A stretch of 61,148 bases of DNA from Alphaproteobacteria bacterium UBA3637. GTDB taxonomy: Bacteria; Pseudomonadota; Alphaproteobacteria; CAAHEQ01; UBA3637. Under the pieces are notes generated by a model. The model worked only from the letters and a program-made list of their open reading frames with translations. It made no database searches and was not told the DNA's origin. Position numbers and translations under genes: made by a program. This document shows positions 26,699 to 34,721 of the stretch, one piece after another (position 1 is the stretch's first letter; each line of letters starts with the position of its first letter). Location of the stretch: contig DFKU01000050.1 in NCBI GenBank assembly GCA_002373615.1, positions 1 to 61,148 on the forward strand, given 5' to 3'.

Positions 26699-27007
26699 AT
26701 GAAACAAGTCATTGAAAAAAATGATAAAAATGATTTTTATATGTCCTTTTTAAAAGAGGTGGGTTCCCATATGCGTGAATATCGAAAAAAACAGGGAATA
26801 ACACAGGCTCAAATGGCACAAAAACTGGGAATGGCCTTTGTTAGTTATAACAGTATAGAACGTGGGATTGTTGGGACAACCGTCAAAACACTTTACAATA
26901 TTTCCCAACTTTTGGGAGTCTCCCCTGCCAGACTTATGTGTGATAAAGACGAAATTTTGTTCTCCAAAGCGGATATTGCCAAGTTTTATAGTCAGGGGGG
27001 AAAATGA
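26699..27007 (+). CDS. XRE-family HTH regulator, first gene of the glycosyltransferase operon
   Basis: QGITQAQMAQKLGMAFVSYNSIERG. Its stop overlaps the next start (ATGA). Confidence 0.7.
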   Translation: MKQVIEKNDKNDFYMSFLKEVGSHMREYRKKQGITQAQMAQKLGMAFVSYNSIERGIVGTTVKTLYNISQLLGVSPARLMCDKDEILFSKADIAKFYSQGGK

Positions 27008-28173
27008 AAAAACTGTTATTTGATATTGATTTTTTATTGGCTTCTTCCGGAAAGGAAACAGGTATTTGTCGGGTAGCTGTTCAGGTTTTACGTGAATTAT
27101 TTCAAAGCTCAGAATACGAAATTTACCCATTGATTACATGTCCCACAAAAATTGATCCTGTTAAATATCTAACCTCAAAAGGAATAAAAATCCCCCAAAA
27201 GAATATAGTCTATTTAAAGTATTTAAAGGCAACTTATGGCGGGTACAAAACAAAACACAGGATAGCGGCAAAAATTCTGAAATTATTGTGTGGTGCAAAG
27301 TATAAAAGAGAGTTAAAAAAATATGATGAATATATCAGTATTTTTTCACCCATTTCCCCTTTGGTTTTTGAAACTGGTCTCAAAACAAAGCTGTTTATCC
27401 ACGATATGGTCCCTATTAAATTTTCAAAGGCCTGTAATAAAAAATTTGTTCAAAAGTACACCTATTGGATGAAACACATAAAGGCTGATGAATTTATTTG
27501 TGTTTCAAAGCATACTCAAAAAGATTTCTTGGAATTTAGACCCGATATCCCAACGGAGAAAACAATGGTCGTTTATTTGGCGGCTGATGAACGCTTTAAG
27601 CCGACACATGATGCACAAATTAAATCTAAATATGGCATTAAAACACCTCGCTATTTTCTGGGGGTTTCTGATCATAATCCACGCAAAAACTTTTCGCATC
27701 TGATTCAATCTTTTATTGAATTTATCAAAAAAGAAAAAATCCATGATATTTCTTTAGTTTTGGTGGGACCCAAAAAACATTTTAGTGAGATTGAAAGTTT
27801 GGTTGGTCATTTGACAGAACTAAAGGATAAGATTATTTTAACGGGATTTGTTCCTGATGAAGATTTGCCGGCACTTTATAGCGAGGCGGAACTTTTTATT
27901 TACCCCAGTTTATATGAAGGCTTTGGACTGCCTGTATTGGAAGCTATGCAATGCGGGACCCCCGTTTTAACAGGTGATAATACCTCTTTACCGGAAGTCG
28001 GGGGGGATGCGGTAGAGTATATTTCCGGAAAAGATATTTTGGAAACCGTTCAAAAAATGTTTGAGCTTCACCAGAATACCGCCAAGCGTCAAAAAATGGC
28101 TGCCGCAGGTTTGAAGCGGGCACAAAAGTTCAGCTGGACCCAAACGGTTGATCAAATTTTTAGATTAAAATGA
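27004..28173 (+). CDS. GT4-family glycosyltransferase
   Basis: EGFGLPVLEAMQCGTPVLTGDNTSLPEVGGDA (Glycos_transf_1 signature). Confidence 0.85.
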   Translation: MKKLLFDIDFLLASSGKETGICRVAVQVLRELFQSSEYEIYPLITCPTKIDPVKYLTSKGIKIPQKNIVYLKYLKATYGGYKTKHRIAAKILKLLCGAKYKRELKKYDEYISIFSPISPLVFETGLKTKLFIHDMVPIKFSKACNKKFVQKYTYWMKHIKADEFICVSKHTQKDFLEFRPDIPTEKTMVVYLAADERFKPTHDAQIKSKYGIKTPRYFLGVSDHNPRKNFSHLIQSFIEFIKKEKIHDISLVLVGPKKHFSEIESLVGHLTELKDKIILTGFVPDEDLPALYSEAELFIYPSLYEGFGLPVLEAMQCGTPVLTGDNTSLPEVGGDAVEYISGKDILETVQKMFELHQNTAKRQKMAAAGLKRAQKFSWTQTVDQIFRLK

Positions 28174-28185
28174 AAGAGGAATATA

Positions 28186-29457
28186 ATGAAATTGATGTTT
28201 GATGCAACAATTTTAGCAAGTGGTTCAGAAAAAAGCGCAGGGCGTAGTGGTATTTTTTTTACGGCGTATCAAATTTTTAACGAATTAAAACGAAATAAAA
28301 ATATAGATTTAATTTTTTATTGTCCGCCCACACAACAAATGTCTTTAAAAAAAACAAAAGAATTTCAAGATGTCCCCCTTTATCCTAAAGTGACATTATT
28401 TGACAAGTGGTATGGCTTTTTACGGCATAAAAAAAGGTCTTTTAAGATAAATCATAAGATGACTTTGAAAATACTTTGCCATTATGTTTTATTTTTTGAA
28501 AGTTGTCTTTTTTATATTCCCAATAAAATTATTAAAAAAATGCAACCGGATCCATCCCAATTAAATTTAGATGCTTTTTTTTCTCCGTGTAGGGCCATTC
28601 CGCCAGAAATCAATGCGTTAAACATTAAAAAATACATTTTATTACATGATACAATTCCATTGATTGTTCCCCAATATTTTAAAGATATGCAAAATAATGG
28701 GAGTTGGTTTTTGAAATTAATTCATTTTATAAAAGCGAACAAAGGAATACATTATTTTGCAAATTCAGGGTATACAAAATCTGATTTTTTAAAATATGTG
28801 CCAGAATTAACCTCAGAACAAATAACGGTAACACCTCTGGCTTGCTCTGATTCTTTTCATCCGTGTTCCAGGGAACAAACAATTAAATCCCTCAAAAAAT
28901 ACAATTTGCCGACAGATAAAAAATATGTCTTTTCTCTCTGTTCTTTGGAGCCAAGAAAAAATTTGATTCGTGCTGTTAAAACTTTTATTGAATTTATTCA
29001 GAAAAATAAAATTGATGATATGGTATTTGTTTTGGGCGGAGGCTACTGGGAGGATTTTATAAATAAATTGAGCACTGAAATTGCAGGGCTGGGTGATTAT
29101 AAAGACAAAATTATCAAGGCCGGCTATATTGATGATGAAGATTTGGCCCCGCTTTACAGTGGTGCTGAATGGTTCGTCTATACCAGTCAGTACGAGGGCT
29201 TTGGCTTGCCCCCCTTGGAAGCAATGGCCTGTGGTTGTCCGGTAATAACCAGTAACAATTCCAGTTTGCCTGAGGTGGTTGGGGATGCCGGTCTTATGAT
29301 TGATTGGGATTCCGATGAACAACATATCAAGGCGTATGAAGATTATTATTTTCACCCAGAATTACGAGAACAGAATCGCCCAAAAGGGCTTGTTAGGGCC
29401 AAAGAATTTTCTTGGGAAAAGACTGTCAATTTAATCGTAAAGGAAATGATGAAATGA
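28186..29457 (+). CDS. GT4-family glycosyltransferase
   Basis: [32 protein letters not shown]. Confidence 0.85.
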
Positions 29458-30974
29458 ATAATATTCTACACAAAAAACTGTTAAGAACTTATGGAGAGTA
29501 TTCTTCTCCTGAAATTTTTTCTTTTCACACATGGACGCAACCAAAGGTTTCATTGATTATCCCCGTCTATAATAAATATGAAATGACGAAAGATTGTTTA
29601 TGGTCTATCCTACAACATACAAAAGATGTTTCATATGAAGTCATTATCGCTGATGATTGTTCAACTGATGAAACGAAAAATATAGAAAATAAAATTACAG
29701 GAATTAAACATATTAGGACAAAGGAAAATTCCGGCTTTGGCGCAAATTGCACGAATGCAATTCAGTATGCTGAAGGAAAGTATATTGCCCTTTTAAATAA
29801 TGATATGCTATTTTATGATAATTGGCTGAAACCAATTATTGATACGTTGGAAAATGATTCCACTATTGGAGCCGCTGGCGGAACATTGATTAATCCGAAT
29901 GGAAAAGTCAGCGAGCTGGGGGGACTTATTTGGGGTGAAAGTAAAGCTATTCGTATTGGTAGAGATTGTACTTATTCTCCAAAATTAAAAAAACTTAATA
30001 CCGATTTTGATTATAAAAGTGGTTGTTGTTTAGTTTTAGAAAAAACTTTGTGGGATAAGGTGGGAGGCTTTGATCCAGCATTCAATCCTGCCTATTATGA
30101 AGATACAGATTTATGTTTTAAAATCCGTGAATTAGGTTTTAGAATCGTCAATGTTTTTGAATCACAAATCATTCATTTTGAAACGGTAAGCTATGGCGAT
30201 AAAGAATTTGAATTATCCGAAATTTGTCGACGCAATGGAAAATACTTTTTTAGAAAATGGCAAAAATTACTTAATAATCCCGACCGTATCAAAAAAATTG
30301 AAAAACGTGTGACGGAATATCAAAAGTATCAACAGAAAGAAATTTCTCATAGACTTTATTATAAGGAAAAATTACCAAATGGCAGACGAAATATTTATGT
30401 GTGTGGTCTTAAGGTATTTAGTTATAAAAAGAAAAGAAAAATGCAAGAATACGAAATATCTGAGGAGGTCATTTTAAAAGGGAATAACCAAGTATTTAAG
30501 GAAGCCTCGGTTAAAACTCAATTTCCAAATAGTATTGTTATCGGTAAGGGAACTCGTATTGGTCAAGATGTGACAATCAGTAATTATGAAAAAAACGGAC
30601 TTATAAAAATAGGTGAAAATTGTCAAATTGGCTGGAACAATAACTATTATGGACAAGGTGGCATTGAAATTGGAAATAATGTCTTGACAGCTTCATTTGT
30701 TTGCATTTTAACCAGTAATCATGGCTGGCAAGAAGTTGATCTGCCGATTATGGATCAACCCAGTACTTATAAAAAAGTCGTTATAGGAGACGATTGTTGG
30801 ATCGGCTATAACGTTATTATTTTAGCTGGGGTTCATATTGGTAAGCATGTGACTGTGGGCGCTGGCTCTGTTGTCACAAAAGATTTACCTGACTATTCTA
30901 TTTGTGCGGGCAATCCTTGCCGTGTCATAAAGAAATATAATTTTAACACAAAAAAGTGGGAGAAAGTATCATGA
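29454..30974 (+). CDS. Fusion of a GT2 glycosyltransferase and a hexapeptide-repeat acetyltransferase
   Basis: The ATG at 29454 overlaps the upstream TGA. The N-terminal half has VSLIIPVYNK...IIADDCSTDET...YEDTDLC (GT2). The C-terminal ~177 aa carry left-handed beta-helix repeats (IGDDCWIGYNVIILAGVHIGKHVTVGAGSVV). The junction peptide NIYVCGLKVFSYKKKRK sits between the two halves. Confidence 0.8.
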   Translation: MNNILHKKLLRTYGEYSSPEIFSFHTWTQPKVSLIIPVYNKYEMTKDCLWSILQHTKDVSYEVIIADDCSTDETKNIENKITGIKHIRTKENSGFGANCTNAIQYAEGKYIALLNNDMLFYDNWLKPIIDTLENDSTIGAAGGTLINPNGKVSELGGLIWGESKAIRIGRDCTYSPKLKKLNTDFDYKSGCCLVLEKTLWDKVGGFDPAFNPAYYEDTDLCFKIRELGFRIVNVFESQIIHFETVSYGDKEFELSEICRRNGKYFFRKWQKLLNNPDRIKKIEKRVTEYQKYQQKEISHRLYYKEKLPNGRRNIYVCGLKVFSYKKKRKMQEYEISEEVILKGNNQVFKEASVKTQFPNSIVIGKGTRIGQDVTISNYEKNGLIKIGENCQIGWNNNYYGQGGIEIGNNVLTASFVCILTSNHGWQEVDLPIMDQPSTYKKVVIGDDCWIGYNVIILAGVHIGKHVTVGAGSVVTKDLPDYSICAGNPCRVIKKYNFNTKKWEKVS

Positions 30975-31942
30975 TTTACGATTGTTTTACCTTTTTTAAT
31001 GAATTGGATTTATTGGAAATCCGACTGAATATCTTAAATGATGTGGTGGATAAATTTGTTTTAGTGGAAATGAACAGAACCTTCTCTGGGAAAAACAAAC
31101 CTTTGTACTATGAAGAAAACAAAGAACGTTTTTCAAAATTTCAAGATAAAATTATCCATGTTATTGTAACAGATTGTCCAGAATCAAAGGATAGTTGGAT
31201 ATCCGAAAATTACCAACGAAATTGCATCGCCCGAGGTCTCAAAAATTGTCAACCAGATGACGTTATTTTGATTTCTGATTTAGATGAGATCCCAAATCCG
31301 GGCTTAATCAAAAACTTGGATTGTTCACAAAAAATCTATCTATTGGAACAAAAAATGTACTATTATTTCATAAATTATTTAGATATTTACTCTCCATTAT
31401 GGCTCACAGGAACAAAAGTTTTGTCCTATCAAAATTTCTTACATGGGTTAGACCAAGTGAAAATCTCTTATTCCACTTTCCTGCCAGAAAGTTTAAATCA
31501 CGGGACTACAGCAAACAAAATTCGCTTATGGGATGGTGCAGAACATATTCAAAATGGAGGGTGGCATTTTTCATATTTAGGCGGAGTTGAGGCTATTGTC
31601 AAAAAGATTCAATCCTTTTCTCATCAAGAATTTAACACACCAACATATCTTGATAAGAACTTAATTTTAAAACGTATTCAAAATGGTGATGATTTATTTA
31701 ATAGGAAAGATCATAGATACTGGCCGGTTTATTTAGATCATACTTTCCCGCAATATATCTTAGATAATCAGGATAAATACAAAAAATTAATTTTTGAAAT
31801 TTCACCAAGACAACTTCTTTTAAGACGTATAAAATTGGTATTGAAGTCCATTTTAGCGTTTTTATACCATAAAGAAGAATCTATTGGACATCAAAAATTT
31901 TATCTGTTTGGAATCAAAATTTTGTCATATAAAAGGAAATAA
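30971..31942 (+). CDS. GT17-like (GnT-III-like) glycosyltransferase
   Basis: MIYDCFTFFNELDLLEIRLNILNDVVDKFVLVE...ISDLDEIPNP resembles Glyco_transf_17. ATGA start overlap. Confidence 0.6.
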   Translation: MIYDCFTFFNELDLLEIRLNILNDVVDKFVLVEMNRTFSGKNKPLYYEENKERFSKFQDKIIHVIVTDCPESKDSWISENYQRNCIARGLKNCQPDDVILISDLDEIPNPGLIKNLDCSQKIYLLEQKMYYYFINYLDIYSPLWLTGTKVLSYQNFLHGLDQVKISYSTFLPESLNHGTTANKIRLWDGAEHIQNGGWHFSYLGGVEAIVKKIQSFSHQEFNTPTYLDKNLILKRIQNGDDLFNRKDHRYWPVYLDHTFPQYILDNQDKYKKLIFEISPRQLLLRRIKLVLKSILAFLYHKEESIGHQKFYLFGIKILSYKRK

Positions 31943-31943
31943 A

Positions 31944-32849
31944 ATGTCATTTTTAAAAACACTTTATTCACGCAAAAAACTGTCTGATGGTCGTGTCAAA
32001 CAGAAAATATTCGGGATCTCCTTTAAATATCGCCCCAAAGATGGCCCTTATCCACCCGTAAAACATCCTAAATTAGGTGTTTCATACAGCGTATGGGACG
32101 GCGAAGAATTATTGGAAGGAGCCATTCGGTCTATCAGACCTGCTGTCGATTATGTCAATGTGGTATGGCAACGTTTATCGTGGCACGGAAAAGAATGTCA
32201 TCCTGATTTGGAAAAGTTATTGATTGACTTGAAAAACAAAGGATTGATTGATGAAATCATTTTCTTTGATTGTGATCCAAGCATAAATTCAAATGTGAAT
32301 GAATGTGCCAAGCGTAATTTGGGATTAGAGGCGGCCAGACAGGCAGAATGTACCCATTTTATGACCTTAGATACTGATGAATATTGGGATTTAGAGCAAT
32401 TTAAAATTGCCAAACAATATGTGTATGATAAAAACATTTCCCATTCTGCCTGTCCACATGTTTTATATCGAACACCGACTGTTAGACATTTAGACTATGC
32501 TGATTTTTTTATATCCTTTATTTATCGTATTGACCACGGTGAAAAATTTGTTAATGGATGTTTTGCAGATGAACTGCCTTGGCGCATGGATCCAACGCGA
32601 GAAATTCCTATAACCAAAAGAAGTCGTGTTTGTTTTTTGCACAATATTCTTTGTCATCATTACAGTTATGTCAGAAAAGATCTGATTAAAAAAATCAAAA
32701 ACACAGCCGCCAACCATAATGCCGAAGAAGAACAAAAATATCTAAACGAGTGGACATGCTCTGATACCCAGATGCAAGAACGTTTGAACTCGGGATATTA
32801 TGTCCCTGTTCCCAATCGCTTTCACATCAATATAGGAGAAGAAAAATGA
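31944..32849 (+). CDS. Putative GT-A-type glycosyltransferase
   Basis: Operon context and the DxD-like TLDTDEY. The family is not recognised. The ATG at 31944 has RBS AAAAGGAAA. Confidence 0.4.
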   Translation: MSFLKTLYSRKKLSDGRVKQKIFGISFKYRPKDGPYPPVKHPKLGVSYSVWDGEELLEGAIRSIRPAVDYVNVVWQRLSWHGKECHPDLEKLLIDLKNKGLIDEIIFFDCDPSINSNVNECAKRNLGLEAARQAECTHFMTLDTDEYWDLEQFKIAKQYVYDKNISHSACPHVLYRTPTVRHLDYADFFISFIYRIDHGEKFVNGCFADELPWRMDPTREIPITKRSRVCFLHNILCHHYSYVRKDLIKKIKNTAANHNAEEEQKYLNEWTCSDTQMQERLNSGYYVPVPNRFHINIGEEK

Positions 32850-33613
32850 CTCAGACACCACTATTGTCTATTGTTACAATTTGTTTCAATAATAGGGATG
32901 ATATAGAGCGCACCTGTAAAAGTATCGCTAGGCAAACATGGCATGATTTTGAATGGATTGTTATAGATGGTGCCTCAACTGATGGAACTTTAGAAATTCT
33001 AAAAAAATATGAAAAATTTATTGATGTTTTAATTTCAGAACCTGATACGGGACGATATAATGCAATGAATAAAGGCGTTTTAAGATCCAAAGGAAAGTGG
33101 TTAAACTTTATGAATGGTGGAGATGCTTTTCATCATCCAAATGTACTTCAAAACCTATCAGAATTTTTAAAAAATGATGAAGCTGATATTTTATACGGAA
33201 ATATGAATTTTATTACCAATAAAAAAGAACATCAAATTGTTACCTATCCTTTGAATATCACTGATCCCAATTATTTCTATGATGGCTGCATCTCTCACCA
33301 ATCCAGTTTTATCAAAAGATCATTATTTCAACAGTATGGTTTATATAATGAAAATTATAAGATTGTCAGTGATTGGGAAAAGTGGATAGTTTTTTCTTTA
33401 TTGAAGTGCAAATTTCGCCATATTAACCTTACCGTTGCAGATTTCTATGATGGTGGGATAGGATCATCTCCCTCTCCCGCACACATAAAAGAAAGAGAAA
33501 CGGTTCAACAAAGATATGGACTATCCCTCTCCATTCAAAACCAGAAATCTATAAATATAAAATATTATTTATTTGGATTTATCCCTATTTTAAAAATAAA
33601 GGAGCAAAAATGA
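32846..33613 (+). CDS. GT2-family glycosyltransferase
   Basis: LSIVTICFNNRDDIERTCKSIARQTWHDFEWIVIDGASTDGT. ATGA start overlap. Confidence 0.85.
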   Translation: MTQTPLLSIVTICFNNRDDIERTCKSIARQTWHDFEWIVIDGASTDGTLEILKKYEKFIDVLISEPDTGRYNAMNKGVLRSKGKWLNFMNGGDAFHHPNVLQNLSEFLKNDEADILYGNMNFITNKKEHQIVTYPLNITDPNYFYDGCISHQSSFIKRSLFQQYGLYNENYKIVSDWEKWIVFSLLKCKFRHINLTVADFYDGGIGSSPSPAHIKERETVQQRYGLSLSIQNQKSINIKYYLFGFIPILKIKEQK

Positions 33614-33804
33614 GTAAGATAAAATTGAAATTATTTTTTATCATTCCAATTTATGAGATAAAGGAGTCCTCAAACCGAAAAATTTGGAAAATTTTGGGTA
33701 TTCCGTTTCTAAAAAAGAAAATAAACAACAGGGGAACAAAAATTATCTATAAATTTTTAGGAATTCCTGTTTTAAAAATTAAAAGGAAATATCGCTATGA
33801 ATGA
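33610..33804 (+). CDS. 64-aa ORF made only of three copies of the GT 'junction' peptide
   Basis: KIKLKLFFIIPIYEIKE / KIWKILGIPFLKKK / KIIYKFLGIPVLKIKRK. It is coupled at both ends (ATGA at 33610, ATGAATGA at 33797-33804). Confidence 0.4.
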   Translation: MSKIKLKLFFIIPIYEIKESSNRKIWKILGIPFLKKKINNRGTKIIYKFLGIPVLKIKRKYRYE

Positions 33805-34684
33805 AAAAATTCCTTTAATCTGTGCAACGGATGAAAATTACGCACCCTTTGCATCTATAATGATGAAATCCGTTTTAATGCACACAAAATCTTTTATTGA
33901 TTTTTATGTATTGGATGGAGGAATAAAAGATAAAACAAAAAAATTGATTCAGGAAGATTTGAAGAAATATTCAAACCATGAATTACATTTTGTTGACATG
34001 TCTAAATTTAATTTATCCAAATTTCCATCTATACATCACTATTCAGTGAACGCTTTTTCCAGATATTTTATTCCTCTGATTCTACATGATTATAAAAAAG
34101 TATTGTACATGGATGTAGATATTATTGTAAGACGTGATATTACAGAATTATATCAACAAAATATGGATAATTTCCCAATTGCTGCTGTTTTAGAGGATTT
34201 TTACGAAGGAAATTATACTTATCTAAAACAATATATTTGGCCAAAATATACAGCGGGGGATCGTTATTTCAATAGTGGTGTTTTATTGATGGATATTCAG
34301 AAATTAAATAAAATGAACTTTACAGAAAAAGCTATTCAATTAACTTGTCAGATATATGATCGATTAAACACGGCAGATCAAGATATCTTTAACATTTTAT
34401 TTGAAAATAACTTTAAAATATTGGATTATCGGTTTAATTATATGCCAGATCATATCACTTTTTTGAAAGAGAAACACCCGGAAATAACATCTATAAACCC
34501 GGTTGTTCTTCATTATACAGCTCGAAAACCATGGAAGGCAAAAAGTTGTGCCTCTGAAGATTTTGAAAAGGTTTTAAATCAAAGCGTCTTTATGGAAAAA
34601 GTCGTATCTAAATATAAGACGTATGAATGTCTAACATATTATTTATTTGGATTTATCCCGTTTTTAAAAAAATATAAAATATAA
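33797..34684 (+). CDS. GT8-family glycosyltransferase (LPS/LOS glycosyltransferase type)
   Basis: ATDENYAPFASIMMKSV, MDVDIIV (DxD), NSGVLLMD, DQDIFN. Confidence 0.85.
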   Translation: MNEKIPLICATDENYAPFASIMMKSVLMHTKSFIDFYVLDGGIKDKTKKLIQEDLKKYSNHELHFVDMSKFNLSKFPSIHHYSVNAFSRYFIPLILHDYKKVLYMDVDIIVRRDITELYQQNMDNFPIAAVLEDFYEGNYTYLKQYIWPKYTAGDRYFNSGVLLMDIQKLNKMNFTEKAIQLTCQIYDRLNTADQDIFNILFENNFKILDYRFNYMPDHITFLKEKHPEITSINPVVLHYTARKPWKAKSCASEDFEKVLNQSVFMEKVVSKYKTYECLTYYLFGFIPFLKKYKI

Positions 34685-34699
34685 AATTGATATTATTAA

Positions 34700-34721
34700 G
34701 GGGAGCGATTTTCACTCCCCC
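34700..34721. terminator. Hairpin between the convergent GT8 and tail-fibre-associated genes
   Basis: GGGGAG-CGATTTTCA-CTCCCC. Confidence 0.55.

Follow-up and report, generated by a model that had tools for sequence, protein, structure and literature searches.

We analysed a stretch of 61,148 nucleotides (nt) from Alphaproteobacteria bacterium UBA3637 (contig DFKU01000050.1), which we call the window; all coordinates are given on its + strand, and the home genome, G000, amounts to 1.11 Mb in 85 contigs. Positions 27004-34684 hold a co-directional, tightly coupled operon with 33% GC, against 41% genome-wide. Two genes of glycosyltransferase (GT) family GT4 are followed by a GT2 gene fused to a hexapeptide acetyltransferase, a GT17-like gene, a gene for 301 amino acids (aa), a WcaE-like GT2 gene, a 64-aa open reading frame (ORF, here the mini-ORF) and a GT8 gene (Table 1). 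The subject of this study is a short peptide motif, rich in basic and aromatic residues, that recurs on the products of this operon and makes up the whole of the mini-ORF. An earlier note on this DNA, made from the sequence alone, had counted eight instances of the motif within 4.3 kb. All eight are there, between 30384 and 34684, and the note had placed them correctly to within a few bases.

The motif stands out from its background

In a six-frame regular-expression search of the whole 1.11-Mb genome, the strict forms of the motif were confined to the cluster at 30384-34684, and the loosest form gave nine matches, six of them inside the cluster. A profile built from the eight copies found eight matches in the home genome, all in the 4.3-kb stretch (E-values 7e-9 to 1.5e-6 per genome), a circular test given that the profile was built from those same copies. 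An independent test used a hidden Markov model (HMM) trained on 57 tail units taken from foreign organisms, with 500 residue-shuffled sets of the same window proteins as background. This foreign HMM scored the GT2 tail highest (Table 1), followed by the GT8 tail (19.0 bits) and the three copies in the mini-ORF (13.6, 6.8 and 5.9 bits). Five of the eight instances thus reached at least 5 bits, against a mean of 0.022 per shuffled set and a shuffle maximum of 10.8 bits. The foreign HMM did not detect the three instances of a second sub-type, termed sub-type B below, which lie at the GT2/Hexapep junction, at the GT17 C-terminus and near the N-terminus of the 301-aa product. The comparison with the shuffles bears out the proposal that a non-random tail recurs on adjacent GT genes, and it answers the caveat of the earlier note that the motif might show no excess over a composition-matched background.

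Another early proposal, that the Lys-rich end of the motif doubles as the Shine-Dalgarno (SD) sequence of the next gene, also holds at the DNA level. The AAA, AAG, AGG and GAG codons form the ribosome-binding site: AAAGGAAA precedes ATG 31944, and AAAAGGAAA lies 9 nt before ATG 33797.

Table 1. Features of the operon that carry or adjoin the motif; 'hairpin' denotes a predicted hairpin unit
Feature	Position	Strand	Basis
GT2 + hexapeptide-acetyltransferase fusion gene, 506 aa as called (ORF opens at TTG 29412)	29454..30974	+	Pfam Glycos_transf_2 residues 47-160, Hexapep 456-490; 506-aa gene call on identical contig
Sub-type B hairpin PNGRRNIYVCGLKVFSYKKKRK, internal, at GT2/acetyltransferase junction	30384..30446	+	Sequence; signature recurs in G002, G003, G009
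GT17-like glycosyltransferase gene	30971..31942	+	Pfam Glyco_transf_17, E 8e-35
Sub-type B hairpin FYLFGIKILSYKRK (then stop), closing the GT17-like gene	31889..31942	+	C-terminus, located in sequence
301-aa gene	31944..32849	+	ATG 31944; Pfam, NCBIfam and PDB-sequence searches blank
Weak hairpin KQKIFGISFKYRPK close to N-terminus of 301-aa product	31989..32045	+	30.9 bits with window-derived profile (circular); foreign HMM blank
WcaE-like GT2 gene, 255 aa	32846..33613	+	Pfam GT2; NCBIfam wcaE E 4e-28, under curated cut-off
Hairpin 1 KYYLFGFIPILKIKEQK (then stop), C-terminus of WcaE-like GT2	33551..33613	+	28.2 bits against foreign HMM
Near-identical DNA patch, GT2 hairpin 1 copy	33558..33596	+	36/39 nt identical to 34632-34670
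Putative fission point: SD AAGGAG 33599-33604, A5 run 33606-33610, ATG 33610 overlapping TGA 33611-33613	33599..33613	+	Read in DNA
Mini-ORF, 64 aa, hairpins 2-4: copy 1 33610-33675, copy 2 33673-33729, copy 3 33733-33804	33610..33804	+	Colinear with fused tails; five-strand beta-meander predicted by AlphaFold2
GT8 (LgtC/WaaI-like) gene	33797..34684	+	Pfam Glyco_transf_8, E 3e-47
Single hairpin TYYLFGFIPFLKKYKI (then stop) ending GT8	34628..34684	+	C-terminus; GT8 homologues with 1, 2 or 3 tandem hairpins
Near-identical DNA patch, GT8 hairpin copy	34632..34670	+	36/39 nt identical to 33558-33596; spacing 1074 nt = 358 codons

Anatomy and predicted fold of the repeat unit

The unit has the consensus [K/R]-x-[Y/K]-L-F-G-φ-φ-P-φ-L-K-φ-K-x-K-x-(N/G) and a period of about 21 residues. 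The Pro is present in all 57 units, the Leu and Phe before the Gly in 52 and 53, and the Lys, Ile and Lys of the K-I-K that follows in 49, 48 and 45. Tested for composition, the 57 units proved basic and aromatic/hydrophobic, with one lineage having acidic ...SIEEK ends. At GT C-termini the motif lies outside the catalytic fold, the Pfam domains stopping before the tails; N-terminal and internal cases also exist.

AlphaFold2 (AF2) was run with a 56-sequence alignment on P0019, a GT8 homologue with three units, and returned a model with a predicted local distance difference test (pLDDT) score of 93 overall, whose catalytic part matches WbbM and LgtC in Foldseek (E ~1e-21 for LgtC). The tail of this model starts after the last GT8 helix, at residue 282, and consists of six antiparallel strands (residues 282-338, pLDDT ~80-85) with turns at F-G-φ and at the inter-unit Asn/Gly position. 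For the mini-ORF itself, AF2 predicts a five-strand beta-meander with strand pLDDT of 65-80. Each unit is thus predicted to be a beta-hairpin of two short antiparallel strands, and tandem units a beta-meander sheet.

When the sequence is mapped onto the predicted strands, L-F-G-φ-φ-P falls along one sheet edge, where it forms the hairpin tips, with Lys and Tyr two to three residues back on both strands and the polar K-x-N-G-x-K turns at the opposite edge. The hydrophobic stretch of each unit measures about 9 residues, and when the 2455 9-mers of the seven enzymes are ranked on the Wimley-White scale, those at the tips fall among the most interfacially hydrophobic.

The module was unmatched in Pfam (E<=10), in NCBIfam and in a profile search of all PDB sequences. 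A search of ten mini-proteins with hmmscan at E<=10 gave no MORN, MORN_2 or CW_binding match and only sub-threshold noise (DUF5963, Zn_ribbon_15); membership of the MORN, MORN_2 or cell-wall-binding repeats was rejected on this result. Foldseek gave zero significant matches for the mini-ORF model, the top one being the DUF1975 domain of TarM at E ~0.5 (query-normalised template modelling (TM) score 0.59, root-mean-square deviation ~2.1 Å over 49 columns). With Pfam blank as well, membership of DUF1975 was also rejected. The full-text literature was searched by peptide strings of the motif only (for example LFGIP and IPLLKIK) and yielded nothing matching, and keyword queries gave general papers on lipopolysaccharide (LPS) or GTs. 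Sorting signals of the PEP-CTERM, GlyGly-CTERM or LPXTG type were considered too. Such C-terminal signals comprise a signature motif, a transmembrane helix of ~20 residues and a basic cluster, and stand on exported proteins. Here the stretch is only ~9 residues long, is found in tandem and also in N-terminal or internal positions, and its carriers are nucleotide-sugar-dependent cytoplasmic enzymes, for which reasons this candidate was discarded. The module is apparently an undescribed repeat of about 21 residues, with an undescribed family of mini-proteins, whose functional kin appear to be the membrane or assembly tails of glycosyltransferases.

Distribution across enzymes and taxa

Of the other 20 genomes in the genus, 16 have the motif at E<=1 per genome, and the stronger matches that we inspected lie on GT4-GT2, double-GT2, GT8, GT10(-Hexapep), LicD, RgpF-type and pyruvyl-transferase proteins, in one, two or three tandem copies. 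At the level of the order, a three-hairpin profile is present in 39 of 80 genomes, almost always fused, at the C-terminus of frames of 300-790 aa. Among 120 homologues of the window GT8, C-termini with one (...KYYLFGFIPLF...), two or three copies were seen, as in the three-copy P0030 (...YYLFGILPLLKIKQKSNGTWISIRFLGFIPLYRISCKSGSSRHYMFGILPWLKIREK), and the tailed homologues include proteins labelled Candidatus Gastranaerophilaceae.

To reach further, we scanned one genome per species with a degenerate DNA pattern for F-G-φ-φ-P-φ-L-K-I-K. At least 120 stretches matched, with 84 matches in 80 listed loci; the results that follow concern the matches listed. Forty-seven ORFs of at least 150 aa were kept as real, and most of the remaining matches, which lay in short ORFs, seemed to be chance hits. 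The 47 carry arrays of one to five copies, mostly C-terminal, and no Pfam model covers the tail in any of them. By Pfam they comprise GT2 (29), GT8 (10), GT32-like (3), aldo-keto reductase (3), pyruvyl transferase (2), GT4 (1) and radical SAM (1) proteins. Going by record names, the hosts are uncultured gut and rumen Alphaproteobacteria, Candidatus Enterousia, Rickettsiales metagenome-assembled genomes (MAGs), Gastranaerophilales, Puniceicoccales, Holdemanella, Bacteroidaceae and Desulfobulbus, together with one isolate, Geminisphaera colitermitum TAV2; an Oxalobacter match is a short frameshifted tail. The aldo-keto reductase and radical SAM carriers (three and one among loci L049-L128) indicate that the hairpin tail is not restricted to glycosyltransferases.

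The module thus occurs on GT2, GT4, GT8, GT10, GT17, GT32-like, LicD, pyruvyl-transferase and other enzymes in one to five copies, usually at the C-terminus and sometimes at the N-terminus or between domains, and its carriers belong to gut Alphaproteobacteria, Melainabacteria, Verrucomicrobia and other groups. An identical three-hairpin C-terminal sequence was seen on L079 (4694-6760) and L092 (89-1405), which are binned as Alphaproteobacteria and Clostridia, respectively, through either mis-binning or recent transfer. Because these two share a tail under different taxon labels, the range of phyla may be inflated by MAG binning.

The three sub-type B instances of the window follow the pattern K-x-P-N-G-R-R-x-I-Y-x-x-G-[IL]-K-[VI]-F-S-Y-K-K, which is found near letter-for-letter in four proteins of three sister genomes (G002, G003 and G009). 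Its sites there are two LicD N-termini (G002, G009), a position before the Hexapep domain fused to a GT10 (G003) and the interior of a 1032-aa GT2-RgpF-type protein (G002). In the LicD and Hexapep cases, this hairpin may belong to the downstream rather than the upstream module. The pattern, seen at 30384-30446 in the window and in L040, L041 and L042, thus marks LicD N-termini and also precedes the hexapeptide-acetyltransferase domain of two fusions that are unrelated, the GT2-Hexapep protein of the window and the GT10-Hexapep protein of G003.

The 301-aa gene product had zero matches in Pfam, NCBIfam and PDB-sequence searches, and its operon context and N-terminal hairpin make an unclassified enzyme of glycan modification probable. 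Directly 3' of the GT8 stop, at 34700-34720, lies a GC-rich DNA hairpin (GGGGAG-CGATTTTCA-CTCCCC) that separates the operon from convergent genes, a 97-aa gene and a tail-fibre-like one, and looks like a bidirectional terminator.

The mini-ORF as a split-off tail

The earlier note had viewed the mini-ORF as three cassette boundaries left after deletion of their gene bodies. This view did not survive comparison with homologues: the three copies are colinear with hairpins 2-4 of the four-hairpin tails of WcaE-like GT2s, and each copy has its own conserved signature. More specifically, the GT2 and mini-ORF genes overlap as ATGA in different frames, and their concatenated products can be aligned over their full length with residues 371-716 of a GT4-GT2 protein (720 aa) in sister genome G005 (E 3e-39), the mini-ORF falling on the three-hairpin tail of that protein. 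In a multiple alignment with three 383-aa WcaE-like GT2s of the same bacterial family (L172, L173 and L175), which have a four-hairpin tail, hairpin 1 pairs with the window GT2's own tail and hairpins 2-4 with the mini-ORF. The initiator Met of the mini-ORF is an internal Met in three of these four fused orthologues. Finally, the GT2 frame ends CAA AAA TGA, the mini-ORF begins at the final A of the run, and one added A would give CAA AAA ATG AGT and thereby one frame of 319 aa, colinear with its fused orthologues. Colinearity with fused tails and a frame difference of one A mark the mini-ORF, as read from the sequence, as a piece split off from a GT2 that ended in four hairpins. A linker of ~60 aa present in the fused orthologues is missing from the window GT2, whose hairpin 1 has the canonical form, whereas the corresponding hairpin of the orthologues is degenerate.

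Seven contigs encode the same 64-aa product. Two of them, L206 from a Joint Genome Institute (JGI) metagenome and L205 from ENA/NCBI, are base-for-base identical to the window over 4.4-6.2 kb, A5 run included; L205 may derive from the window's own assembly, and L206 is an independent JGI assembly. With an identical junction in that independent assembly, an assembly error was rejected as the origin of the split. A programmed -1 slip of tRNA-Lys along the A-run next to TGA, which would give a fused product, was considered from the sequence only and also rejected: the SD spacing is 3 nt, the geometry of +1 and not of -1 frameshifting, and the +1 frame meets a TAA at once. Furthermore, proteins of the L204 type, which stand alone, have an N-terminal extension homologous to the linker of the fused L200, and the window-type proteins lack it; fission has hence happened at least twice. 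Frame-interrupted tail arrays were also noticed elsewhere. In an Oxalobacter MAG (L083, 3088-4196) a GT2 tail continues in another frame, and in L107 (3823-4717) a WcaE-like GT2 is divided between a head of 139 aa and a 101-aa fragment that closes with three hairpins; either may be a real fission or an assembly error.

A family of stand-alone mini-proteins

An exhaustive phmmer search with the mini-ORF against 1.84 billion representatives returned 29 clusters at E<=1e-3. Stand-alone proteins, 52-117 aa long and all Met-initiated, account for 23 of them, and C-terminal tails of proteins of 340-980 aa for six. A word-indexed homology search with the 40-aa GT8 tail and the mini-ORF, whose index requires shared 5-mers, returned only the query itself, and tblastn of the mini-ORF against PLSDB plasmids gave zero matches. 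Copy-specific signatures are kept across the family: KLF[FG]xxPxY, then WKI[LF]GIP, then KYYxLGIPVLK. We define the family of three-hairpin mini-proteins by a length of 50-120 aa, a Met start and three units in that order. The window ORF fits this definition: its residues 1-63 align with P0122 (E 4e-14) and 22 further stand-alone clusters, and the three-hairpin profile scores it at 93.7 bits, a partly circular value since the window ORF is in the profile. Three relatives that are 56-65% identical to it (P0122, P0123 and P0125) start at the same position.

On five metagenome contigs (L199 and L201-L204) the module stands alone behind an SD of its own and comes first in GT operons whose enzymes each have one hairpin, and in L200 the same module is fused to a GT2. 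The free L204 and the fused L200 modules are 74% identical, with a non-synonymous rate (dN) of 0.20 and a synonymous rate (dS) of 0.99; between the window mini-ORF and the G005 tail dN is 0.53 and dS 1.38, and other pairs are saturated. The resulting dN/dS of ~0.2-0.4 shows, at the level of codon comparison, a repeat family under purifying selection. A 'module upstream of GT8' was examined as a general gene pair and rejected: the pair occurs in the window, L203 and L204, and L202 has it as a GT8-GT2 fusion, but it is not general across the order.

In the window, the SD AAGGAG lies 5 nt upstream of the mini-ORF's ATG 33610. Because of this site, the conservation, the recurrent stand-alone homologues and a dN/dS below 1, the mini-ORF is most likely still translated, by coupling, and would act in trans as a small membrane-bound protein of three hairpins. 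It possibly re-pairs with the single-hairpin tails of the neighbouring GTs.

A candidate membrane anchor and its alternatives

Taken together, we favour, with a probability of roughly 0.6, the reading that the ~21-residue unit is a beta-hairpin repeat acting as a peripheral membrane anchor of glycan enzymes, possibly with a docking role as well, and that the mini-ORF is a split-off three-hairpin tail. The hydrophobic hairpin tips would penetrate the cytoplasmic leaflet, and a collar of Lys and Tyr would lie at the phospholipid head-groups, so that otherwise soluble enzymes would be tethered beside their lipid-linked acceptor. The number of hairpin copies may tune avidity, and the free three-hairpin mini-protein would be a trans-acting piece of the same tethering device. 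For this step, shallow insertion of the tips with a collar on the head-groups and a mini-protein working in trans, we would put the odds slightly better than even. The earlier note had proposed an amphipathic, basic/aromatic membrane-interface anchor. A basic/aromatic anchor indeed remains the most plausible function, but the form changes: AF2 gives beta-hairpins with a hydrophobic tip and not an amphipathic helix. An amphipathic alpha-helical anchor was rejected, the AF2 tail being purely beta-strand and the hydrophobic stretch being interrupted by Gly and Pro.

Several points weigh against the anchor reading. The membrane step draws on composition, predicted fold and analogy with peripheral GT tails; the mini-ORF is modelled with moderate confidence only (mean pLDDT 66) and lacks the Gly of its first hairpin (LFF for LFG). 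In one lineage (L204 4187-7847; P0016, P0017, P0020, P0027, P0031 and P0060) all tails end in ...L[ST][IVT]EE[KNLIM], for example SIEEK, and not in ...LKIKxK, and such acidic ends fit a purely electrostatic membrane anchor poorly. Moreover, the exposed row of hydrophobic tips could equally be a protein-protein interface.

The main rival is a docking or scaffold module, in which the hairpins of the enzymes and the mini-protein pair edge to edge by beta-sheet augmentation into a GT complex for one pathway, membrane binding being secondary or absent. We consider this unlikely as the main function. It would suit the interconversion of stand-alone and fused forms, a Rosetta-stone pattern, as well as the L204 lineage, where acidic tail ends occur alongside a basic mini-protein. 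In L204 itself the tails of four consecutive GTs end in SIEEK or SVEEM with only 6-10 identical codons among 10-13 identical residues, and shared endings written in different synonymous codons within one operon suggest co-adaptation at the protein level. Likeness of tails within a genome, however, could also come from old gene conversion or from a common lipid environment, and at many loci the enzymes are tailed but a mini-protein is missing; fused modules make up nearly all of those in the order searched. The closest structural matches of the mini-ORF model, none of them significant, are to DUF1975, a beta-sheet domain of TarM and a trimerisation hub, and also point this way, but the Foldseek E-value is only 0.5. 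The anchor and docking models are compatible and do not exclude each other. A further reading is a 'glycan assembly-line zipper', in which single-hairpin GT tails and the free mini-protein would join in a common beta-sheet between molecules at the membrane surface, the mini-protein would nucleate a defined multi-enzyme complex, and tail dialects (KIKEK versus SIEEK) would insulate pathways, much as docking domains do in polyketide synthases and non-ribosomal peptide synthetases. We regard this reading as speculative and somewhat less likely again than docking by itself.

The motif might instead be chiefly a DNA-level cassette boundary that promotes recombination of GT genes, with the peptide as a by-product. 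This is improbable, and the earlier suggestion that the boundary could mediate GT-gene shuffling finds weak support, in one near-identical DNA patch and in fusion/fission events and a synteny breakpoint within tail arrays. The two patches of Table 1 are in frame with each other and form the only near-identical tail pair in the window; the likeness of the GT2 and GT8 3' ends stops at the edges of this 39-nt patch, on which ground a segmental duplication of 'tail plus downstream' was rejected. The canonical hairpin 1 of the linker-less window GT2, set against its degenerate counterpart in fused orthologues, also speaks for exchange, and a small conversion or recombination between tails is, judging from the sequence, a reasonable inference for its origin. 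In a Rickettsiales MAG (L061, 3317-5449) two adjacent GTs have an identical 33-aa two-hairpin tail with 31 of 36 codons identical, which points to recent duplication or to gene conversion limited to the tail. DNA homology of the window with the GT8 loci of G009 and G005, moreover, covers the last hairpin before GT8 and ends there. Against this, the tails are the gene ends, where fusion, fission and breakpoints are expected under any gene-wise shuffling. Elsewhere, conservation is at the level of the peptide: the other tails of the window have no DNA similarity beyond what the peptide demands, and across phyla the protein is conserved with differing synonymous codons and a dN/dS of 0.2-0.4. A defined fold is predicted, and the motif is also found at N-termini and on non-GT enzymes.

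Still less probable is that the mini-ORF is a dead remnant, a frameshifted, non-functional GT2 tail open only through a recent frameshift. The single-base difference in the A-run, the degenerate first hairpin (LFF, YEIKE) and the frameshifted arrays of L083 and L107 would fit such a remnant. The start shared with P0122, P0123 and P0125, in contrast, makes the split seem old, with a frame that stayed open; the SD and ATG are strong, the hairpin signatures are retained, dN/dS is below 1, and independent stand-alone lineages have SD sites of their own. Codon bias as the sole cause, by which a motif without significance would follow from the K, I, F and Y enrichment of a cluster at 33% GC, can be set aside, given the composition-preserving shuffles (0.022 hits of at least 5 bits against five observed), the genome-wide profile that finds the motif nowhere else in the genome, and the phmmer homologues, in which position, order and copy-specific detail are kept across phyla.

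Relation to known systems and meaning

Read as a membrane anchor, the module invites comparison with several known tails and repeats. Neisseria LgtC, a GT8, reportedly has a basic/aromatic C-terminal tail for membrane association. The tails of LgtC and similar lipooligosaccharide/LPS GTs resemble the window motif in standing at the extreme C-terminus of a GT8, in being rich in Lys and aromatic residues and in presumably holding a soluble GT-A enzyme at the inner membrane. The LgtC tail, however, is a single unstructured or helical stretch, whereas the motif is a repeated, predicted beta-hairpin of ~21 aa that is found on many enzyme folds in one to five copies and also as a free mini-protein. 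The alpha-1,3/4-fucosyltransferases of Helicobacter pylori (GT10) have C-terminal heptad repeats followed by amphipathic helices, and the likeness lies in a repeat of variable number and a basic/hydrophobic tail on a cytoplasmic GT; the GT10 of G003 bears the hairpin. Those repeats are of 7 aa, leucine-zipper-like and with helical tails, and have no sequence similarity to our unit of 21 aa, which is predicted to be beta.

Monotopic phosphoglycosyl transferases of the PglC type have a re-entrant membrane helix broken by Pro. The shared traits, predicted on the window side, are a short, hydrophobic, Pro-broken segment dipping into one leaflet, basic flanks and an occurrence on glycan-assembly enzymes. 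In PglC, however, it is a single N-terminal helix-break-helix of ~30 residues integral to the catalytic fold, whereas in the window 9-residue tips of repeated hairpins stand on unrelated catalytic domains. DUF1975 of the TarM/GtfA-type GTs is likewise an antiparallel beta-meander attached to a glycosyltransferase, but it is an insertion in the GT-B N-domain of Gram-positive enzymes, whereas the module is a terminal repeat with no sequence or Pfam kinship to it. MORN and choline/cell-wall-binding repeats have beta-hairpin periods of ~20-23 aa, and MORN repeats are tied to membrane or lipid binding and oligomerisation. The likeness is one of tandem Gly/aromatic hairpins in an elongated sheet, and the difference lies in the window signature LFGxxPxLKxK.

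How soluble GT-A and GT-B enzymes reach the membrane and one another is poorly understood, and the membrane anchors of such GTs that we know of are idiosyncratic helices. Here, a portable module and a matching free mini-protein are found on at least ten enzyme families in several phyla, mostly in uncultured host-associated bacteria. If the anchor reading is true, the module would serve as a marker for polysaccharide-biosynthesis proteins and for unannotated small genes in metagenomes, and it would account for the frequent 'fusion/fission' annotations at GT gene ends. It would also offer glyco-engineering a compact tag for membrane targeting or enzyme co-localisation and, if the docking variant is true, the assembly-line organisation of glycan synthesis would become directly testable.

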